Assembly: GCA_035281745.1 (NCBI GenBank) | Contig: DATEDI010000014.1 | Coordinates: forward strand, 40,587-104,586 | Direction of reading: 5' to 3' | Length of the DNA: 64,000 nt | DNA from: Rhodanobacteraceae bacterium | GTDB taxonomy: Bacteria; Pseudomonadota; Gammaproteobacteria; Xanthomonadales; Rhodanobacteraceae | Program-made: the position numbers and the translations under genes | Shown: positions 2,777 to 32,032 of the stretch, one piece after another | Numbering within the stretch: the stretch's first letter is position 1 | How the letters are laid out: every line of letters begins with the position of its first letter | Notes under the pieces: model-generated | The model's input: the letters and a program-made list of their open reading frames with translations, nothing else | The model's database searches: none | Told to the model about the DNA's origin: nothing

Positions 2777-4846
2777 ATGAGCGCAACCACCGCAACACCA
2801 TCGCGTCGCGAGTTGACGATCCGGGGCGTCATCATCGGCATCGTCATCACCATCGTGTTCACCGCCGCAAACGTCTATTTCGGACTGAAGGCCGGCCTGA
2901 CCTTTTCGACGTCGATTCCTGCTGCGGTGATCTCGATGGCGATCCTGAAGGCCATGCGCGACGCCACGATCCAGGAAAACAACATCGTACAGACGGTGGC
3001 CTCGGCCGCTGGCACGTTGTCTTCGATCATCTTCGTGTTGCCGGGCCTGGTAATCGTCGGATACTGGAGCGGATTCCCGTTCTGGATTTCCGCCGGCATC
3101 TGCGCGACCGGCGGCATCCTGGGCGTGATGTACACCATCCCCTTGCGGCGCGCGCTGGTGACCGATTCGGATTTGCCGTATCCCGAAGGAGTCGCCTGTG
3201 CCGAGGTGCTGAAGGTCGGCAGCGGGGCCGACGAGCAGATCGGCCGGATGGCCGAAGTGGAATCGGTGCCCGCCGCCGACGCAGTGCGCGGGATCGAAGC
3301 GCCCGCCCCCGTGGCGGCTGCGCAGGCGAGTGCGGCCGGGCTGAAGGCGGTGCTGTGGGGCGCGATCGTTTCGGCGATCTTCTACGTCATCGTGCAGACC
3401 CGGGTCTTCGCCGCCGCGGTCACCGATTATTTCCGGGTCGGCGGCGAGCGCGGTGGCGCCAGCGGCTTCGATTTCGGCCTCTCATTCGCCCTGTTCGCGA
3501 TCGGCCATCTGGTGGGCTTGTGGGTGGGCGTGGCGATGCTGGTGGGCGCCGCGATCGGCTGGGCGTGGGCGGTGCCGTACTTCACGCATCTGCATTGGGC
3601 GGCCGGTCCGGCGGCAGAAGTGGCGCAAGCCGGCTGGAGCCATTATGTACGCTTCATCGGCGCCGGTGCCATCGGCGTGGCCGCGATCTGGACGCTGGCG
3701 AAACTGGTAAAGCCGTTGGCCGGCGGACTTGCGGGTGCCTTCCGCGCGTCGCGCGCGCGCAAGGCCGGCACCTTGCACGAATTGCCGCGCACCGAACACG
3801 ACATGCCGATCGGCATGGTCGGCCTGGTTTCGCTGATCTGCATGATTCCGATCGCCTACTTGCTGTGGCACTTCAGCGTCACCAACGGGCTGGGCGAGGC
3901 GACCTGGCCGCTGGTGATTGGCGGCGTGGTGTTCGTGATCCTGCTGAGCTTCCTGGTGTCGGCGGTGTGCGGCTACATGGCTGGCCTGATCGGATCGTCA
4001 AACAGTCCGTTGTCGGGCGTGGGAATTCTGGTGGTGGTGATCGCGGCGCTGCTGCTGGTGGTCGGCATCAAGCCCTTCCTGCCGCCGGAGGCCGACAAGG
4101 CACTGGTCGGTTTCGCACTGTTCATCACGGCGATCGTGTTCGCGGTGGCGTCGATCGCCAACAACAACCTGCAGGATCTGAAGACTGGGCAACTGGTGGA
4201 TGCCACGCCCTCGATGCAGCAATGGGCGTTGGTGATTGGCGTGCTGGCCGGTGCGGTCGTGATCCCGCCGGTGCTGGATCTCCTGCAAAGCACTTACGGT
4301 TTCCTGGGTGCGCCGGGCGCCGATCCGGCGATCGCCTTGCCCGCGCCACAGGCGGGCCTGATTTCCGCATTGGCCAAGGGCGTAATCACCGGCGAGGTGC
4401 CTTGGGACATGATCGGGCTCGGCGCCGGTATCGGCGTGGTCATCATCATCTTCGACGAGTTGTTGGGGTTCTCCAAGAAAAAACACGGGCCGCGGCTGCC
4501 CCCGCTCGCGGTGGGTCTTGGCATTTACCTGCCGACCTCGACCACCCTGATGGTGGTCGTGGGCGCGCTGGTGGGGGCGTGGTTCGATCGCCGCGCCGAC
4601 CGCCGCCCTGGCACCGAGTCGACCAAGCAGCTCGGCGTGCTGCTGGCTTCCGGCCTGATCGTGGGCGAAAGCCTGCTGGCGGTGATCTTCGCCGCCATCG
4701 TGGGACTGAGCGGCAAGCAAGGGCCGATTGCGCTGGTGGGCGCGGAATTCGAGACGCCCTCGATCATCCTCGGCGGTGTGGTGTTCGCGGCATTGGTGGT
4801 CCTGCTTTACCGCTGGATTATCCGGATGGGCCGCGCGACGGCTTGA
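2777..4846 (+). CDS. OPT-family oligopeptide transporter
   Basis: Polytopic membrane protein of about 690 aa with typical OPT N-terminal sequence ([33 protein letters not shown]). Start at ATG 2777 with GGGGAA upstream; 2744 is an alternative. Confidence 0.85.
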
Positions 4847-22970: not shown

Positions 22971-25604
22971 ATGAAAACTGCAGAGATTCGCGCACGCTTC
23001 CTCGAGTTCTTCAAGGATCGCGGCCACACCATCGTGCCTTCCGCGCCGCTGGTGCCGGCCAACGATCCGACGTTGCTGTTCACCAATTCGGGGATGGTGC
23101 AATTCAAGAACGTGTTCCTCGGCAGCGAAAAACTGCCGTACGTGCGCGCGGCGGACGTGCAGCGTTGCCTTCGCGCCGGCGGCAAGCACAACGACTTGGA
23201 TTCGGTCGGTTACACCGCGCGCCATCACACCTTTTTCGAGATGCTGGGCAACTGGTCGTTCGGCGATTACTTCAAGAAGGAAGCGATCGAGTGGGCATGG
23301 GATCTGCTGACGAAGACTTTCGGATTGCCGCCCGAAAAATTGTGGGTGACCGTCTATCACACGGACGACGAGGCATTCGGCATCTGGAAGGATGGGGTCG
23401 GCGTGCCGGCCGAGCGCATCGTCCGGATCGGCGACAACAAGGGCGCGCCGTTCGCCTCGGACAATTTCTGGCAGATGGCCGATACCGGGCCATGTGGTCC
23501 GTGCAGCGAAATCTTCTATGACCACGGCGCCGATGTCGCCGGGGGGCCGCCGGGCTCGCCCGATGAAGACGGCGATCGCTACATCGAGATCTGGAACCTG
23601 GTGTTCATGCAGTTCGATCGCGCCGAGGACGGCACGCTGTCGCCGCTGCCCGCGCCCTGCGTGGATACCGGCATGGGCCTGGAACGTCTCGCCGCGGTGC
23701 TGCAGGGCGTGCACTCCAATTACGAAATCGACCTGTTCCAGCGCCTGATCGCTGCCGCGCAAAAACTGACGCGTTGCAGCGACCACGAAAACAAATCGCT
23801 GCGGGTGATCGCCGACCACATCCGCGCCTGCGCGTTCCTGATCGTGGACGGCGTGCTGCCGTCGAACGAAGGTCGCGGCTACGTGCTGCGCCGGATCATC
23901 CGCCGCGCGCTCCGGCACGGCTGGATGCTGGGCGTGCGCGGTGACTTCTTCTGGAAGATGGTCGCGCCGCTGGTTGCGGAAATGGGCCAGGCCTATCCCG
24001 AGCTTGCGAAGAAGCAGGCGTTCGTCGAGGAAGCCCTGCGCGCCGAGGAGCACCGCTTCGGCGAGACGCTGGAACACGGCATGAAGGTGTTCGACGAGGT
24101 GGCTTCGAAATCGGACAAGATCATTCCGGGCGATGATGCGTTTCGCCTCTACGACACCTACGGTTTTCCCGTTGATCTGACCGCCGACATCGCGCGCGAG
24201 CGCGGCATGAATATGGACATGATCGGGTTCGAGCGCGCGATGGAAGCCCAGCGCGAACGTGCGCGCGCGGCCAGCAAGTTCGAGAGCAAGGCGCAACTGT
24301 CGGCGGAGGTCGCGAGCAGGCTTTCGCCGACGCAATTCCTCGGCTACGAAACGCTGGAATCGCGAGACGGCGAGGTGCTGGCGATCCTGCGCGACGGCCG
24401 CGCGGTGGAAGAACTTGCACCCGGCGAATCCGCCGCGATCATTCTGGACCGCACCCCTTTCTATGCGGAGTCGGGCGGGCAGGTGGGCGACACCGGTGCG
24501 CTGGAGCATGCGAACGGTCGCTTCATCGTCGAGGACACGCAAAAGTTCGGCGGCCAGTTCCACGGCCACGTCGGCGCATGGCAAGGAAATGCGCCGCTGC
24601 GCGTCGGCGAACATGTATTCGCGCGTGTCGATGTCGCGCGCCGGCAGGCAACGGTGCTGAATCACTCGGCCACGCATCTGTTGCACGCGGCGCTGCGCGA
24701 AACCCTGGGTGCGCACGTGACGCAAAAGGGCTCGCTGGTCGCGCCCGACCGCTTGCGTTTCGACTTCTCGCATTTCCAGCCAGTGAAGCCGGAAGAGCTT
24801 CGTCGCATCGAGAATCGCGTCAACGAGCAGATCCGCCGCAACGACGCCGCGGAAATCCGCCAGATGGATTACGACGACGCGATCGCCACCGGCGCGATGG
24901 CGTTGTTCGGCGAAAAATACGGCGACGAAGTCCGCGTGTTGCGGATGGGCGACTTTTCGACCGAGTTGTGCGGCGGCACGCACGTCGCGCGCACCGGCGA
25001 CATCGGCCTGTTCAAGATCGTCTCGGAATCAGGTGTCGCGGCTGGGATCCGTCGCATCGAGGCGCTGACCGGCGCGGGCGCAATGGCGCACGTGACGGAA
25101 GAAGAGCATCGGCTTGCCGACGTCGCCGGCCTGCTTTCATCGAGCGCGGGCGACGTGGCCGACAAGCTGCGCCTGTTGCTCGACAGGCAGAAGAAGCTGG
25201 AACGCGAACTGGATGCGCTGAAGGCCAAGGCCGCCGGCACGGCGACTGGCGATCTGGCATCTCACGCCCAAATCGTCGCCGACATCAAGTTGGTGGCCGC
25301 GCGCATCGACGGCATGGACGCGAAGGCCTTGCGCGACGCGGTCGACACGCTGAAACAAAAACTCGGTGACTGCGTGGTGTTGCTGGCGTCCGGCGGCGGC
25401 GGCAAGGTCGCCCTGGTTGGCGGCGTGCACGGAGCCGCGCTTGGCAAGGTCAAGGCCGGCGACGTGGTCGCGCATGTGGCCACGCAGATCGGCGGCAAGG
25501 GGGGCGGCCGGCCCGATATGGCGCAGGGCGGCGGCGTCGATTCACCCGCGCTGGATCAGGCGCTGCAAGGCTTGGCGGGCTGGGTGACGCAAGCGCTGAA
25601 CTAG
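22971..25604 (+). CDS. alaS: alanine--tRNA ligase
   Basis: 877 aa with a canonical AlaRS N-terminus and the editing-domain motif HSATHLLH. Confidence 0.97.
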
Positions 25605-25887
25605 GCCTGCCATCGCCATCCCATGTGGCGGGGGCAATAGAACCCATCTTCGGCACCGTGCCAGAAGTCACGCCGATTTCATTGCGCGGGCTTGGCCCGT
25701 TCATATATAGTCGCGGGGCGTTTGATCGCCCCCGCACCGGTCTATTGCGGGAGATGGAGGAACCTGAACGTCGCGATGCATCCTGCGTCGGTTCGCGATC
25801 GTCCTGTCTTGCTGCGATTCGCGATCCGGAGGGGAACGCGCGTTGCGGTTTTCGGGTCCAATGGATCCGAGTGAATGGAGTTCTGTC

Positions 25888-26118
25888 ATGTTGATTTTGA
25901 CCCGCCGGGTTGGGGAAACCCTGATGATCGGCGATCAGGTAACCGTTACGGTGCTGGGCGTGAAGGGCAACCAGGTACGCATCGGCATCACGGCGCCGAA
26001 GGATGTCGCGGTGCATCGCGAAGAGATCTACCAGCGCATCAAGCAGGAACATGAGGCGGCTGGTGGCGTGCCGGTCGAGTCCGACGAGCCTGCCCGGCAC
26101 GAAGCAACCCACGGCTGA
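25888..26118 (+). CDS. csrA: carbon storage regulator CsrA/RsmA
   Basis: [16 protein letters not shown]...[22 protein letters not shown] 25888 with GGAG upstream. Confidence 0.95.
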
Positions 26119-26206
26119 TGCGGGTAGGTCGTACGGCTTTACCGCAAGCGGAGATGCCTTTATCCTGATCGACCGGTTTCGCCGGCCGATCATTGCGCGC
26201 GCGAGC

Positions 26207-26245
26207 GGTGTGGAGGAGGCATGGATGCCGACTGGGAGGCGCACC
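26207..26245 (+). ncRNA. GGA-hairpin module A (candidate structured RNA element)
   Basis: Closing stem GGTGTG/CGCACC, GGA-bearing internal loops and apical hairpin GGCA-TGGA-TGCC. See findings. Confidence 0.4.
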
Positions 26246-26279
26246 AAGGATGGTTGGTTTGAATAAATTTTTGAAATTC

Positions 26280-26372
26280 GGAGAGATGCCCGAGAGGCCG
26301 AAGGGGCTCCCCTGCTAAGGGAGTATCGGGTCAAAAGCCTGATCGAGGGTTCGAATCCCTCTCTCTCCGCCA
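26280..26372 (+). tRNA. tRNA-Ser(GCU)
   Basis: Manual cloverleaf: acceptor GGAGAGA/TCTCTCC, anticodon loop CT-GCT-AA, long variable arm, T-arm GAGGG-TTCGAAT-CCCTC, encoded CCA. Confidence 0.95.
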
Positions 26373-26380
26373 TTCAATCG

Positions 26381-26409
26381 TTGACGTGATTGCAGCGACA
26401 CCGGATAAT
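26381..26409 (+). promoter_or_regulatory. near-consensus sigma70-type promoter after tRNA-Ser
   Basis: TTGACG (26381-26386), 17-nt spacer, GATAAT (26404-26409). Confidence 0.55.
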
Positions 26410-26433
26410 TCGCGGCTCGCTTTGTGTTTCAAT

Positions 26434-26453
26434 GCGTCCGTAGCTCAGCTGGT
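26434..26453 (+). pseudogene. decayed tRNA-Arg-like 5' fragment
   Basis: GCGTCCGTAGCTCAGCTGGT matches the first 19-20 nt of the downstream tRNA-Arg (GCGCCCGTAGCTCAGCTGGA), but no anticodon arm or T arm follows. Confidence 0.5.
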
Positions 26454-26495
26454 CGAACGCGAGGCGCTTGCGACAGTCCGGTGGACTGTCGCGCC

Positions 26496-26533
26496 GAGCG
26501 TGAGGAGGAGGCATGGATGCCGACTGGACGCTC
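26496..26533 (+). ncRNA. GGA-hairpin module B (candidate structured RNA element)
   Basis: Closing stem GAGCGT/ACGCTC, internal GAGGAGGA and apical hairpin GGCA-TGGA-TGCC. Lies in the leader of tRNA-Arg(ACG). Confidence 0.4.
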
Positions 26534-26568
26534 GCACCATGGACGGTTCGAAGTACAACAGTTCCAAT

Positions 26569-26645
26569 GCGCCCGTAGCTCAGCTGGATAGAGTACCAGG
26601 CTACGAACTTGGTGGTCGGGAGTTCGAATCTCTCCGGGCGCGCCA
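26569..26645 (+). tRNA. tRNA-Arg(ACG)
   Basis: Acceptor GCGCCCG/CGGGCGC, anticodon loop CT-ACG-AA, T-arm GGGAG-TTCGAAT-CTCTC, encoded CCA. Confidence 0.95.
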
Positions 26646-26649
26646 TTCA

Positions 26650-26688
26650 ACGAAGAGGCCGACGCGTTGTCGTCGGCTTCTTCGTTTC
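26650..26688 (+). terminator. hairpin terminator after tRNA-Arg(ACG)
   Basis: GAAGAGGCCGAC-gcgttgtc-GTCGGCTTCTTC, followed by GTTT. Confidence 0.55.
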
Positions 26689-26776
26689 CGGCACCACCGT
26701 TTGCGTGCGTTGACCCGCGCGAGCGGACGAACGTACCATTGCCTGCCGCCGTGCTTGCGGGCCGTCGGTGGCGTTT

Positions 26777-26853
26777 CGGGGTATAGCTCAGTCTGGTAGA
26801 GCGCCAGCTTTGGGAGCTGGATGTCGGGGGTTCGAATCCCTCTGCCCCGACCA
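26777..26853 (+). tRNA. tRNA-Pro(UGG)
   Basis: Acceptor CGGGGTA/TGCCCCG, anticodon loop TT-TGG-GA, T-arm GGGGG-TTCGAAT-CCCTC, encoded CCA. Confidence 0.95.
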
Positions 26854-26890
26854 ATGACAAAAGCGGGCCCTTGTGGCCCGTTTTTGTCAT
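26854..26890. terminator. bidirectional rho-independent terminator
   Basis: ATGACAAAAGCGGGCC-cttgt-GGCCCGTTTTTGTCAT: a GC stem flanked by an A-run and a T-run. Confidence 0.7.
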
Positions 26891-26935
26891 TGAATGAAGT
26901 GTGGATGAGAACTGGCGCCTTCGCCAGAAGGCGCC

Positions 26936-26969
26936 GTTCGACTGCGGAGCCATGGATGGCGGAGCGAAC
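26936..26969 (+). ncRNA. GGA-hairpin module C (candidate structured RNA element)
   Basis: Closing stem GTTCG/CGAAC and apical hairpin GCCA-TGGA-TGGC (a compensatory variant of A/B), flanked by two CGGAG motifs. Confidence 0.35.
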
Positions 26970-27049
26970 ATCGCGCGCCAGCGCGATGGCCCGCAGGGCG
27001 AGCGCCGGCTAGGCGCGAGTCGTCTCTCTGCTCCGACCTTTGTTCGTGG

Positions 27050-27126
27050 TGGCGCGCCCGACTGGAATCGAACCAGCAACCGTCGGCTTAGAAGGCCGAT
27101 GCTCTATCCGATTGAGCTACGGGCGC
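27050..27126 (-). tRNA. tRNA-Arg(UCU)
   Basis: The reverse complement folds as acceptor GCGCCCG/CGGGCGC, anticodon loop CT-TCT-AA, T-arm GCTGG-TTCGATT-CCAGT, with encoded CCA. Confidence 0.95.
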
Positions 27127-31825: not shown

Positions 31826-32032
31826 GTGAGAAGTCAGGCCGGGGAAGGCTGTTTCGGAATTCACCGGGCCGAACCGGTCATGTTGGCGGGAACGTTGGCG
31901 CTGCAGCGATCAGGGACGATCGCAAGGCTGTGGTGGAAAGTCAGGGCATGGATGCCCGTTCTGGCGCTCGTGACCTCAAAACGGCTCGGATCGTCAGCCG
32001 ATCTGTCGAGGCAGCGATCATGGACGATCGCA
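31826..32032 (+). repeat. tandem pair of ~107-nt structured, GGA-rich repeat units
   Basis: Two units, each ending in the hairpin GCAGCGATCA(G/T)GGACGATCGCA (31903-31924 and 32011-32032). The core reads GT(G/-)GA(A/G)AAGTCAGG plus a hairpin. A related copy lies at 39725-39852. Confidence 0.6.

Follow-up and report, generated by a model that had tools for sequence, protein, structure and literature searches.

GGA-loop hairpins beside csrA and tRNA genes of a Rhodanobacteraceae bacterium as candidate copies of an insertional structured repeat with predicted CsrA sites

Downstream of csrA in a Rhodanobacteraceae bacterium, a cluster of tRNA genes is interspersed with three GGA-loop hairpin modules, A, B and C. 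We analysed them in a 64,000-nucleotide stretch of contig DATEDI010000014.1, referred to as the window, in which positions are counted from the first letter. The gene order is alaS (22971-25604), csrA, module A, tRNA-Ser(GCU), a promoter-like site, unit B (which contains module B) and tRNA-Arg(ACG), continued by a hairpin, tRNA-Pro(UGG) and its terminator, then module C and, on the minus strand, tRNA-Arg(UCU). The CsrA translation is 100% identical to P0001, the CsrA of a Rhodanobacteraceae bacterium metagenome-assembled genome (MAG; Pfam PF02599). A previous reading of the letters alone, the original prediction, placed the modules correctly at 26207-26245 (A), 26496-26533 (B) and 26936-26969 (C), all on the plus strand, and was also right that A starts about 90 nt past the csrA stop (89 nt after 26118) and that a TTGACG-17-GATAAT promoter is present at the locus. 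It took the modules for CsrA-titrating or CsrA-controlled RNA linked to csrA. The evidence presented here points to a different origin, as copies of a structured repeat that inserts beside tRNA genes and whose transcripts probably bind CsrA.

Each module folded alone gives the architecture first described for it, a closing stem, internal loops and an apical UGGA hairpin, at -12.8 kcal/mol for A (z -1.7), -17.0 for B (z -4.4) and -11.1 for C (z -2.0). The common core, H4, has 2 bp, a GA/GA or GGA/GGA internal loop, 4 bp and a UGGA loop. Its apical part reads GGCA-UGGA-UGCC at 26218-26229 and 26510-26521, and GCCA-UGGA-UGGC at 26949-26960. A second hairpin, H5 (ACCA-NGGA-NGGU), lies ~25 nt 3′ of H4 in A and B; it had gone unnoticed, as had the tRNA-Arg 5′ fragment and the 27-nt duplication described below. 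In module A, H4 spans 26214-26233 with the loop GGA at 26224-26226, H5 (ACCA-AGGA-UGGU) spans 26243-26254, and the module ends 21 nt 5′ of tRNA-Ser. In module C, the GUUCG/CGAAC stem encloses GGA-GCCA-UGGA-UGGC-GGA.

These hairpins are concentrated at the locus. CA-NGGA-UG hairpins with a stem of at least 4 bp number 7 on both strands of the window, and 4 of them (26220, 26245, 26512, 26951) fall within this 750-nt stretch, all on the plus strand. The modules and their immediate flanks (207 nt) contain 14 GGA and 0 TCC, compared with a window background of 14.8 and 13.7 per kb; the original prediction counted 13 GGA. In dinucleotide shuffles of whole spacers the GGA excess is only moderate, reaching significance just for 26373-26568 (observed count attained in 6 of 500 shuffles). 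At an unrelated position (31945-31958, plus strand), the window holds a GGGCA-UGGA-UGCCC hairpin with its sole other exact GGCATGGATGCC, a possible CsrA target or a chance match.

Unit B consists of GGUCGAAC, a long P1/P2 hairpin (P2 26470-26492), H4 (26506-26525, with GGCAUGGAUGCC at 26510-26521) and H5 (26536-26547), and its tail GUUCGAAG can pair with the 5′ UCGAAC. The fold of the unit has a z score of -2.2, and H4 is present in both the minimum free energy and the centroid structure. Immediately before the unit stands a 5′ fragment of tRNA-Arg (26434-26452) that carries one mismatch and ends at the D-loop GG. The 27-nt tRNA-Arg segment from -8 to +19 flanks the unit on both sides with a period of 135 nt. 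In relatives that do not have unit B, e.g. L001, the promoter-like site adjoins tRNA-Arg directly on its 5′ side. The ends of such units (26451-26457 and 26545-26553 in the window) look like the halves of a T-loop (GG·UCGAAC ... UGG·UUCGAAG), and the two can base-pair with one another. A tRNA-like fold of the 5′ fragment plus the unit was considered and rejected, as there is no conserved 3′ acceptor strand and NCCA is the 5′ strand of H5.

The coordinates of all features are collected in the table. The block GCTTTACC...TATCCT, which contains the putative tRNA-Ser promoter, is kept 3′ of the csrA stop in Frateuria, Rhodanobacter, Dyella and Luteibacter loci; the site is missing from the list of a promoter consensus scan because too few of its consensus positions match. 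Judged by its position, this promoter would put module A within the tRNA-Ser 5′ leader. Module C, with orthologs in L001, L006 and L007, resembles a miniature unit of the second type defined below, beginning GUUCGAC. It sits 3′ of the terminator, and the promoter consensus scan found no promoter of its own.

Table. Features of the csrA-tRNA locus in the window
Feature	Position	Strand	Basis or remark
csrA, 76 aa	25888-26118	+	Neighbour of the repeat, not part of it
Putative tRNA-Ser promoter, TTTACC-17-TATCCT	26138-26166	+	Read from sequence; 8/12 consensus positions
Module A, candidate 5′-truncated type-i unit	26199-26258	+	nhmmer type-i profile, E 8.8e-14; row winA of alignment A2
tRNA-Ser(GCU)	26280-26372	+	ARAGORN; Rfam tRNA, 53.7 bits
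Promoter-like site, TTGACG-17-GATAAT; would drive unit B and tRNA-Arg	26381-26409	+	10/12 consensus positions
Duplicate of tRNA-Arg(ACG) positions -8 to +19	26426-26452	+	Direct repeat D5, 93% identical to 26561-26587
Unit B, candidate full type-i unit	26451-26560	+	Covariance model R1 match 26446-26536, 21.8 bits, E 0.003; nhmmer E 2e-16
tRNA-Arg(ACG), intact, directly 3′ of unit B	26569-26645	+	ARAGORN, Rfam
tRNA-Pro(UGG) (26777-26853) and terminator hairpin (26852-26892)	26777-26892	+	ARAGORN, Rfam; inverted repeat I3; U-tract follows the hairpin
Module C region	26900-26969	+	GUGGAUGAG, hairpin 26914-26935, then GUUCG/CGAAC stem (26936-26940, 26965-26969)
tRNA-Arg(UCU)	27050-27126	-	ARAGORN; inverted relative to L001 and L006

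Two types of unit can be distinguished. A type-i unit such as B has on its 5′ side the beginning of a tRNA-Arg, tRNA-Ser or tRNA-His gene, a 5′ fragment that stops after the D-loop GG; on the 3′ side of the unit come a duplicated leader and the intact tRNA. Type-ii units are ~105 nt long, begin GGUUCGAC and contain the elements H1, H2, H3 and H4; H1 is 9 bp with a C-N-GGA loop, H3 is flanked by GGA, and H4 is formed by 2 bp, GA/GA, 6 bp and an N-GGA loop. They are located between the two halves of a tRNA-Ser T-loop. Type-ii units (L116 6447-6570) are bracketed by GGUUCGA and AAUCCC.

We examined the csrA loci of relatives, eleven found through CsrA homologs 86-94% identical and 80 gammaproteobacterial loci from named genomes. 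In most of the 80, csrA adjoins tRNA-Ser(GCU)-tRNA-Arg(ACG), and many Rhodanobacteraceae csrA loci contain same-strand GGA-hairpin modules. Type-ii units occur in 1 to at least 4 copies 3′ of tRNA-Ser in Rhodanobacter ginsengisoli, Dyella silvae, Dokdonella and several MAGs. The copy number of the type-i modules also varies: unit B is missing in L001, L002 and L012, L004 has two copies, and A is degraded in L001. No units were found in the csrA loci of Xanthomonas, Stenotrophomonas, Lysobacter, Luteibacter, Fulvimonas and some Dyella. A loose count of GGA hairpins 5′ and 3′ of csrA (92 loci) did not discriminate between the two sides and is uninformative, because tRNAs and coding sequence yield many matches.

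The units are not confined to csrA loci. We scanned metagenome contigs with the pattern GGRSGAGKCATGGATGMCGASYGG, which covers the H4 of the window and the L009 variant and carries no csrA anchor, and observed 62 loci, of which 12 contain csrA. In 35 of the 62 the unit lies just 5′ of a same-strand tRNA, 27 of these at 63-68 nt, and all 35 are co-oriented with the tRNA. The downstream tRNAs represent seven anticodons (Arg ACG, CCG, CCU and UCU; Ser GCU, UGA and CGA), each of them found with a unit at loci without csrA, and a profile search added units 5′ of tRNA-His, likewise away from csrA. Of 67 metagenome matches, 36 are joined at GG·TCGA to a 5′ fragment of the same tRNA, and some form arrays of two or three units. 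Type-ii units were also found, without csrA, beside tRNA-Ser(UGA) and tRNA-Ser(CGA); in L116, GGUUCGA and AAUCCCACCCUCUCCGCCA border the unit exactly, which places it inside a tRNA-Ser T-loop. The type-i tRNA fragments carry mismatches in the window, L107, L134 and L138, and the duplicated tRNA segment ranges from 27 to ~43 nt. The units start with GGTCGA, contain no GTAG or CGTC tag, and have as their sole inverted terminal match the 6 nt UCGAAC/GUUCGA.

The other 27 loci have no tRNA nearby, and altogether the metagenome copies occupy at least 10 kinds of context. Two unlinked copies, L108 and L118, reside on one 1.09-Mb contig. Further copies lie between ABC-transporter cistrons, in a metH leader and between genes of opposite strand; L149 and L100 are antisense to their neighbour genes and most others sense, as judged from gene calls that rest on third-position GC content (GC3) only. 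In L097 a copy lies in frame within purL, giving a ~26-aa insert relative to Salmonella PurL, and P0121, an 88% identical homolog, lacks the insert and represents the empty site. The same PurL loop, after ...SMQAQW (alignment A3, columns 259-296), carries different insertions in P0122, P0145 and P0125 and for this reason seems to be an insertion hotspot. On the L102 contig, RecG 1-417 is joined to FabH 237-317 exactly at a unit, either by mis-assembly across the repeat or by a real rearrangement. Eight loci in one group of soil-metagenome contigs with ~70% GC (L096, L100, L104, L109, L110, L135, L149 and L152) show a short form of the unit amid GGGCTGA-like heptamers and GAGGTC repeats, sometimes in arrays. 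Copies were absent from the viral contigs and plasmids scanned. With units at many loci without csrA, within purL, between cistrons and antisense, and with the copy number varying at the csrA locus itself, the proposed linkage to csrA is not supported. The original prediction had named a dispersed repeat, present in both orientations and unlinked to csrA, as the outcome that would speak against it, and this is largely what we found.

The fold of the units is conserved beyond their sequence, which was the original argument for selection on RNA, but this cannot be seen within the window. A and B are plain paralogs, alignable over 28 nt with 96% identity and over another 16 nt with 88% (direct repeats D4 and D7), and their outer closing stems occupy non-homologous columns of alignment A2; therefore, the window alone shows no covariation and the divergent closing stems are no example of it. 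Covariation is instead observed among relatives. In an alignment of 15 type-ii units, 15 of 29 pairs show compensatory changes, compared with 2-4 pairs in slid controls and with 0 of 500 shuffles reaching this number, although the shuffle statistics are inflated by the relatedness of the sequences. The C-N-GGA and N-GGA loops are invariant across the 15 units. Among 30 aligned type-i units, the two closing pairs of H4 vary as AU15/GC15 and GC19/CG9/UA1 and the outer pair of H5 as AU17/UA9, with GGA invariant and the bases beside it variable. The GGA loop is thus kept in three non-homologous hairpins (H1, H4 and H5), and the alignments support structural constraint on hairpins that hold an invariant GGA in their loops.

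A covariance model built from type-ii units, R1, gave 31 matches with E < 0.2 in 475 kb, all on the plus strand, 3′ of csrA and beside tRNAs. Among them are distant, AT-richer Marinicella and Steroidobacter loci that keep CUGGA, AGGAA or UGGA loops, and also unit B of the window, which identifies the window H4 as the common core of a structured family. The ortholog of module C in L001 (3614-3714) is a weak match (E 0.014). Using Rfam 15, only tRNA models reached the gathering score, and no relevant family was found in the window (E up to 10) or in six related loci (E up to 0.1).

CsrA and RsmE recognize CA-N-GGA-N-G in a short hairpin loop. The resemblance of the modules to this consensus, as claimed at first, is borne out by their CA-N-GGA-N-G loops. 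The unit loops CAUGGAUG and CAGGAUG fit both the CsrA consensus from SELEX (systematic evolution of ligands by exponential enrichment) and the RsmE-hcnA consensus, reportedly due to Dubey in 2005 and Schubert in 2007, and some relatives carry GGCAGGAUGCC, which is the exact CsrB repeat CAGGAUG within a hairpin. H4 and H5 are 25-26 nt apart, and a spacing of this size suits one CsrA dimer. PMC13443453 describes the CsrA site as “GGA-containing hairpin loops”. Modules A and B each have a promoter, found or inferred, on their 5′ side and a tRNA gene on their 3′ side, and they are read in the sense direction. Lying either between tRNA promoters and tRNAs or behind a terminator, the modules form no stand-alone promoter-terminator small RNA (sRNA) gene, and no GacA/UvrY box (TGTAAGN6CTTACA-like) was found near the locus. 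The csrA leader itself (25740-25890) contains GGA motifs, including AAUGGAU and GAAUGGAG at the Shine-Dalgarno position. These are compatible with CsrA autoregulation, which has been described in E. coli.

We consider it on balance probable that the modules are copies of an insertional, tRNA-gene-associated structured repeat and that the leaders containing them bind CsrA. From their sequences, B would be a full copy, A a 5′-truncated copy and C a miniature relative, belonging to a family of insertional structured repeats of ~70-135 nt that reside mainly within and beside tRNA genes. The dispersal, the copy-number variation and the filled and empty sites are what an insertional repeat would show. 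The family is described neither in Rfam 15 nor in the searchable literature, where the hairpin sequence retrieved only unrelated primer matches and we found no tRNA-associated repeat of this kind and no Rhodanobacteraceae Rsm sRNA. Its position beside csrA is probably incidental, since csrA-tRNA-Ser(GCU)-tRNA-Arg(ACG) is an old conserved order and these tRNAs appear to be preferred sites of the element.

In the mechanism that we propose, A and B would be transcribed from the tRNA-Ser and tRNA-Arg promoters within pre-tRNA 5′ leaders of ~105 and ~155 nt, and RNase P would release these leaders by its cut at the tRNA 5′ end. Each released leader would expose two near-consensus CsrA sites ~25 nt apart; with two such sites at dimer spacing, the A and B leaders probably bind CsrA and could serve as a growth-rate-coupled sink. 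Module C, behind a terminator and with no promoter found, may be silent. Binding of CsrA may have been selected for, or it may be a by-product of hairpins that the element needs for its spread. Antisense and intragenic copies keep the hairpins, which argues that more than selection on the RNA by CsrA is at work.

Several observations weigh against this interpretation. The duplicated tRNA segment varies in length and so is not a classical target-site duplication, and no transposase, integrase or defined ends were identified for the units, with no search aimed at transposases made. Because the metagenome scan selected its copies by their H4 sequence, conservation of H4 among them is uninformative, and relatedness inflates the shuffle statistics. 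Type-ii units keep their synteny from Marinicella to Dyella with compensatory changes, which would also fit an RNA selected by the host. At the window itself, module C stands behind a strong terminator and may go untranscribed, and in one low-probability fold of the full-length leader the H4 loop base-pairs with the tRNA fragment in its mutated form (GCGUCCGU).

Some of the same data would suit purely selfish DNA, in which the hairpins are recognised by a trans-acting single-strand transposase or recombinase, either like that of REP (repetitive extragenic palindromic) sequences and their RAYT (REP-associated tyrosine transposase) or as for a non-autonomous derivative of an IS200/IS605-type element (insertion sequence), with GGA unrelated to CsrA and the RNA irrelevant. 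We regard this as possible, if on the unlikely side. IS200/IS605 elements bear subterminal hairpins, and type-ii units similarly have their GGA hairpins H1 and H4 at both ends. The H4 and H5 core is kept in an open reading frame (ORF), between cistrons and antisense to neighbours, one soil metagenome dataset holds many copies in GGGCTGA-rich flanks, and the units are patchy among genera and differ in copy number between close relatives. However, no cognate enzyme is among what was identified, again with no search directed at transposases, and the viral contigs and plasmids are free of copies. The maintenance of GGA in three non-homologous hairpins and in unpaired GGAC/GGA internal loops exceeds what one recognition hairpin needs, and all 35 tRNA-linked loci share the orientation of their tRNA. 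A further reading is a previously undescribed, self-propagating CsrA-binding cassette that inserts in tRNA D- or T-loops, regenerates the tRNA, rides the cell's strongest, growth-rate-controlled promoters and titrates CsrA through its released leader RNAs; we put it forward tentatively, as rather unlikely.

The original prediction, a dedicated csrA-linked RNA that titrates CsrA and stands in for CsrB or RsmY/Z in these bacteria, now seems quite unlikely. Consensus-type GGA hairpins are dense on the sense strand right 3′ of csrA, arrays of 2 to at least 4 type-ii units with ~5 GGA each lie 3′ of csrA-tRNA-Ser in Rhodanobacter, Dyella and several MAGs, and no other antagonist is known for Rhodanobacteraceae. 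Yet most copies found without csrA anchoring are not near csrA, units are missing from the csrA loci of the five genera named above and of some Dyella, close relatives lack unit B or have a degraded A, and the modules possess neither a GacA/UvrY box nor a promoter-terminator unit of their own. The fixed 63-68 nt to the tRNA 5′ end in 27 loci would suit a cis-acting leader element for tRNA processing or transcription, working through alternative pairings (P1 versus the H4 closing stem) or as a decoy for RNase P or RNase E. In this regard, the P1 3′ strand can pair with either the P1 5′ strand or the post-H4 linker; the complementarity to the linker is 12.3 within units against 10.8 +/- 0.45 when permuted (0 of 2000 permutations reach it), which weakly suggests a family-wide stem between the two. 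But the tRNA fragments decay (window, L107, L134 and L138), the core also occurs where there is no tRNA, and the same genes of relatives do without the unit, making such a role very unlikely. Short leader peptides (MDADW...), read from a GGAGG Shine-Dalgarno sequence and an AUG, have hardly any probability. An AGGAGG does lie 4 nt 5′ of the AUG in the H4 loop, but relatives have CACGGAUG, CAAGGAUG, CAGGGAUG or CAGGAUG at this place, beyond MD the peptides vary in both sequence and length, and H5 and H1 carry GGA loops without an ORF. As neither the AUG nor the peptides are conserved, this idea was rejected.

If the cassette reading were true, the units would supply the missing CsrB/Rsm-type antagonist for Rhodanobacteraceae and some other Gammaproteobacteria, and CsrA activity would be tied to tRNA transcription. 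If the hairpins do bind CsrA, a lineage without a known antagonist would have a new class of CsrA sink in its tRNA-operon leaders, coupling Csr to the growth-rate and stringent control of tRNA promoters and giving an example of a regulator's binding sites spreading genome-wide on a repeat. Even if only selfish, the element targets tRNA D- and T-loops while leaving an intact tRNA, and it tolerates in-frame residence in a protein. The partial-tRNA arrays made by the units also confuse tRNA annotation.

Additional features were observed at related loci. The window and L007/L008 carry tRNA-Arg(UCU) in the opposite orientation to L001 (3783-3859) and L006 (2223-2299), and a type-i unit lies directly 5′ of this tRNA in L006, L118 and L153. 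In four loci (L021 2860-2925, L030 2862-2930, L039 2860-2925 and L059 2862-2930) the 3′ end of tRNA-Ser(GCU) is followed by a terminator and an inverted copy of the 3′ end (CTCTCTCTCCGCCAG...CTGGCGGAGAGAGAG). The result is a perfect ~35-bp hairpin whose terminator part varies by genus and is still complementary. Such a hairpin could lock away the tRNA 3′ strand when transcription reads through. An integrase-like coding sequence stands right 3′ of tRNA-Ser(GCU) in Frateuria sp. Soil773 and Rhodanobacter denitrificans (L016 2990-3800, L023 2950-3270), and this tRNA is thus also a target of larger islands, which may displace any repeat units. In L007/L008, a ~790-nt insert (2975-3760), with an 80-aa minus-strand ORF called, separates tRNA-Ser from tRNA-Arg, and the alaS of L008 is split over several gene calls, suggestive of frameshifts or assembly errors.

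Among known RNAs, the units can be compared with CsrB/CsrC and RsmX/Y/Z, which also have repeated short GGA-loop hairpins (CAGGAUG or CAUGGAUG), several per transcript and at a spacing suited to the dimer. The possession of multiple GGA in loops that marks CsrA antagonists is seen here in the H4 and H5 loops of A and B, and in the H4 loop and GGA internal loops of C. Unlike those sRNAs, the units have no sequence or covariance-model match to them and no GacA/UvrY box, and they are embedded in tRNA leaders or loops and dispersed, even into ORFs, rather than forming stand-alone genes. Another RNA for comparison is RsmU of Xanthomonas campestris, which comes from the 3′-UTR (untranslated region) of the comEA mRNA, is processed from a longer transcript and has been shown experimentally to bind RsmA (PMC7694677). 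The original remark that no such antagonist is established in Xanthomonadales is thus out of date; both are Xanthomonadales RNAs, with binding demonstrated for RsmU and predicted for the units.

Regulatory RNAs that are co-transcribed with stable-RNA operons and processed out of them offer another parallel. 3′ETS-leuZ is a sponge derived from a tRNA spacer. The rrA, rrB and rrF sRNAs of E. coli rRNA operons bind CsrA in vitro (PMC8144298). These are single conserved spacers, whereas the units are insertional, multi-copy and accompanied by tRNA-fragment duplications. RtT RNA (RF00391, E. coli tyrT operon) resembles the units as a repeat in tRNA operons that holds pieces of the adjacent tRNA, but it carries the tRNA 3′ end and the units the 5′ part; its match over module C (26883-27039) has 20.3 bits and E 0.56, below the gathering score of 45.

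Partial tRNA duplications are also left by integrative elements as attL and attR (PMC9897764). In our case the insert is ~110 nt with no integrase identified, the duplicated part of the tRNA is the 5′ one, the duplication is 27 to ~43 nt, and tandem repetition occurs. Rickettsia palindromic elements, REP/REPIN sequences and miniature inverted-repeat transposable elements (MITEs) are likewise short, structured and multi-copy, and reside between genes, within RNA genes and, as in purL here, in frame inside protein genes. The presence of many copies (62 loci) and of filled and empty sites (purL; unit B present or absent) agrees with dispersed repeats of this kind. The units are unrelated to them in sequence, start with GGTCGA instead of a GTAG or CGTC tag, have no clear terminal inverted repeats, strongly prefer the tRNA D-loop or T-loop with regeneration of the tRNA, and keep invariant GGA loops. 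Altogether, Rickettsia palindromic element-, REP- or MITE-type repeats, together with the partial tRNA duplications of integrative elements, are the nearest structural and evolutionary precedents for the units.

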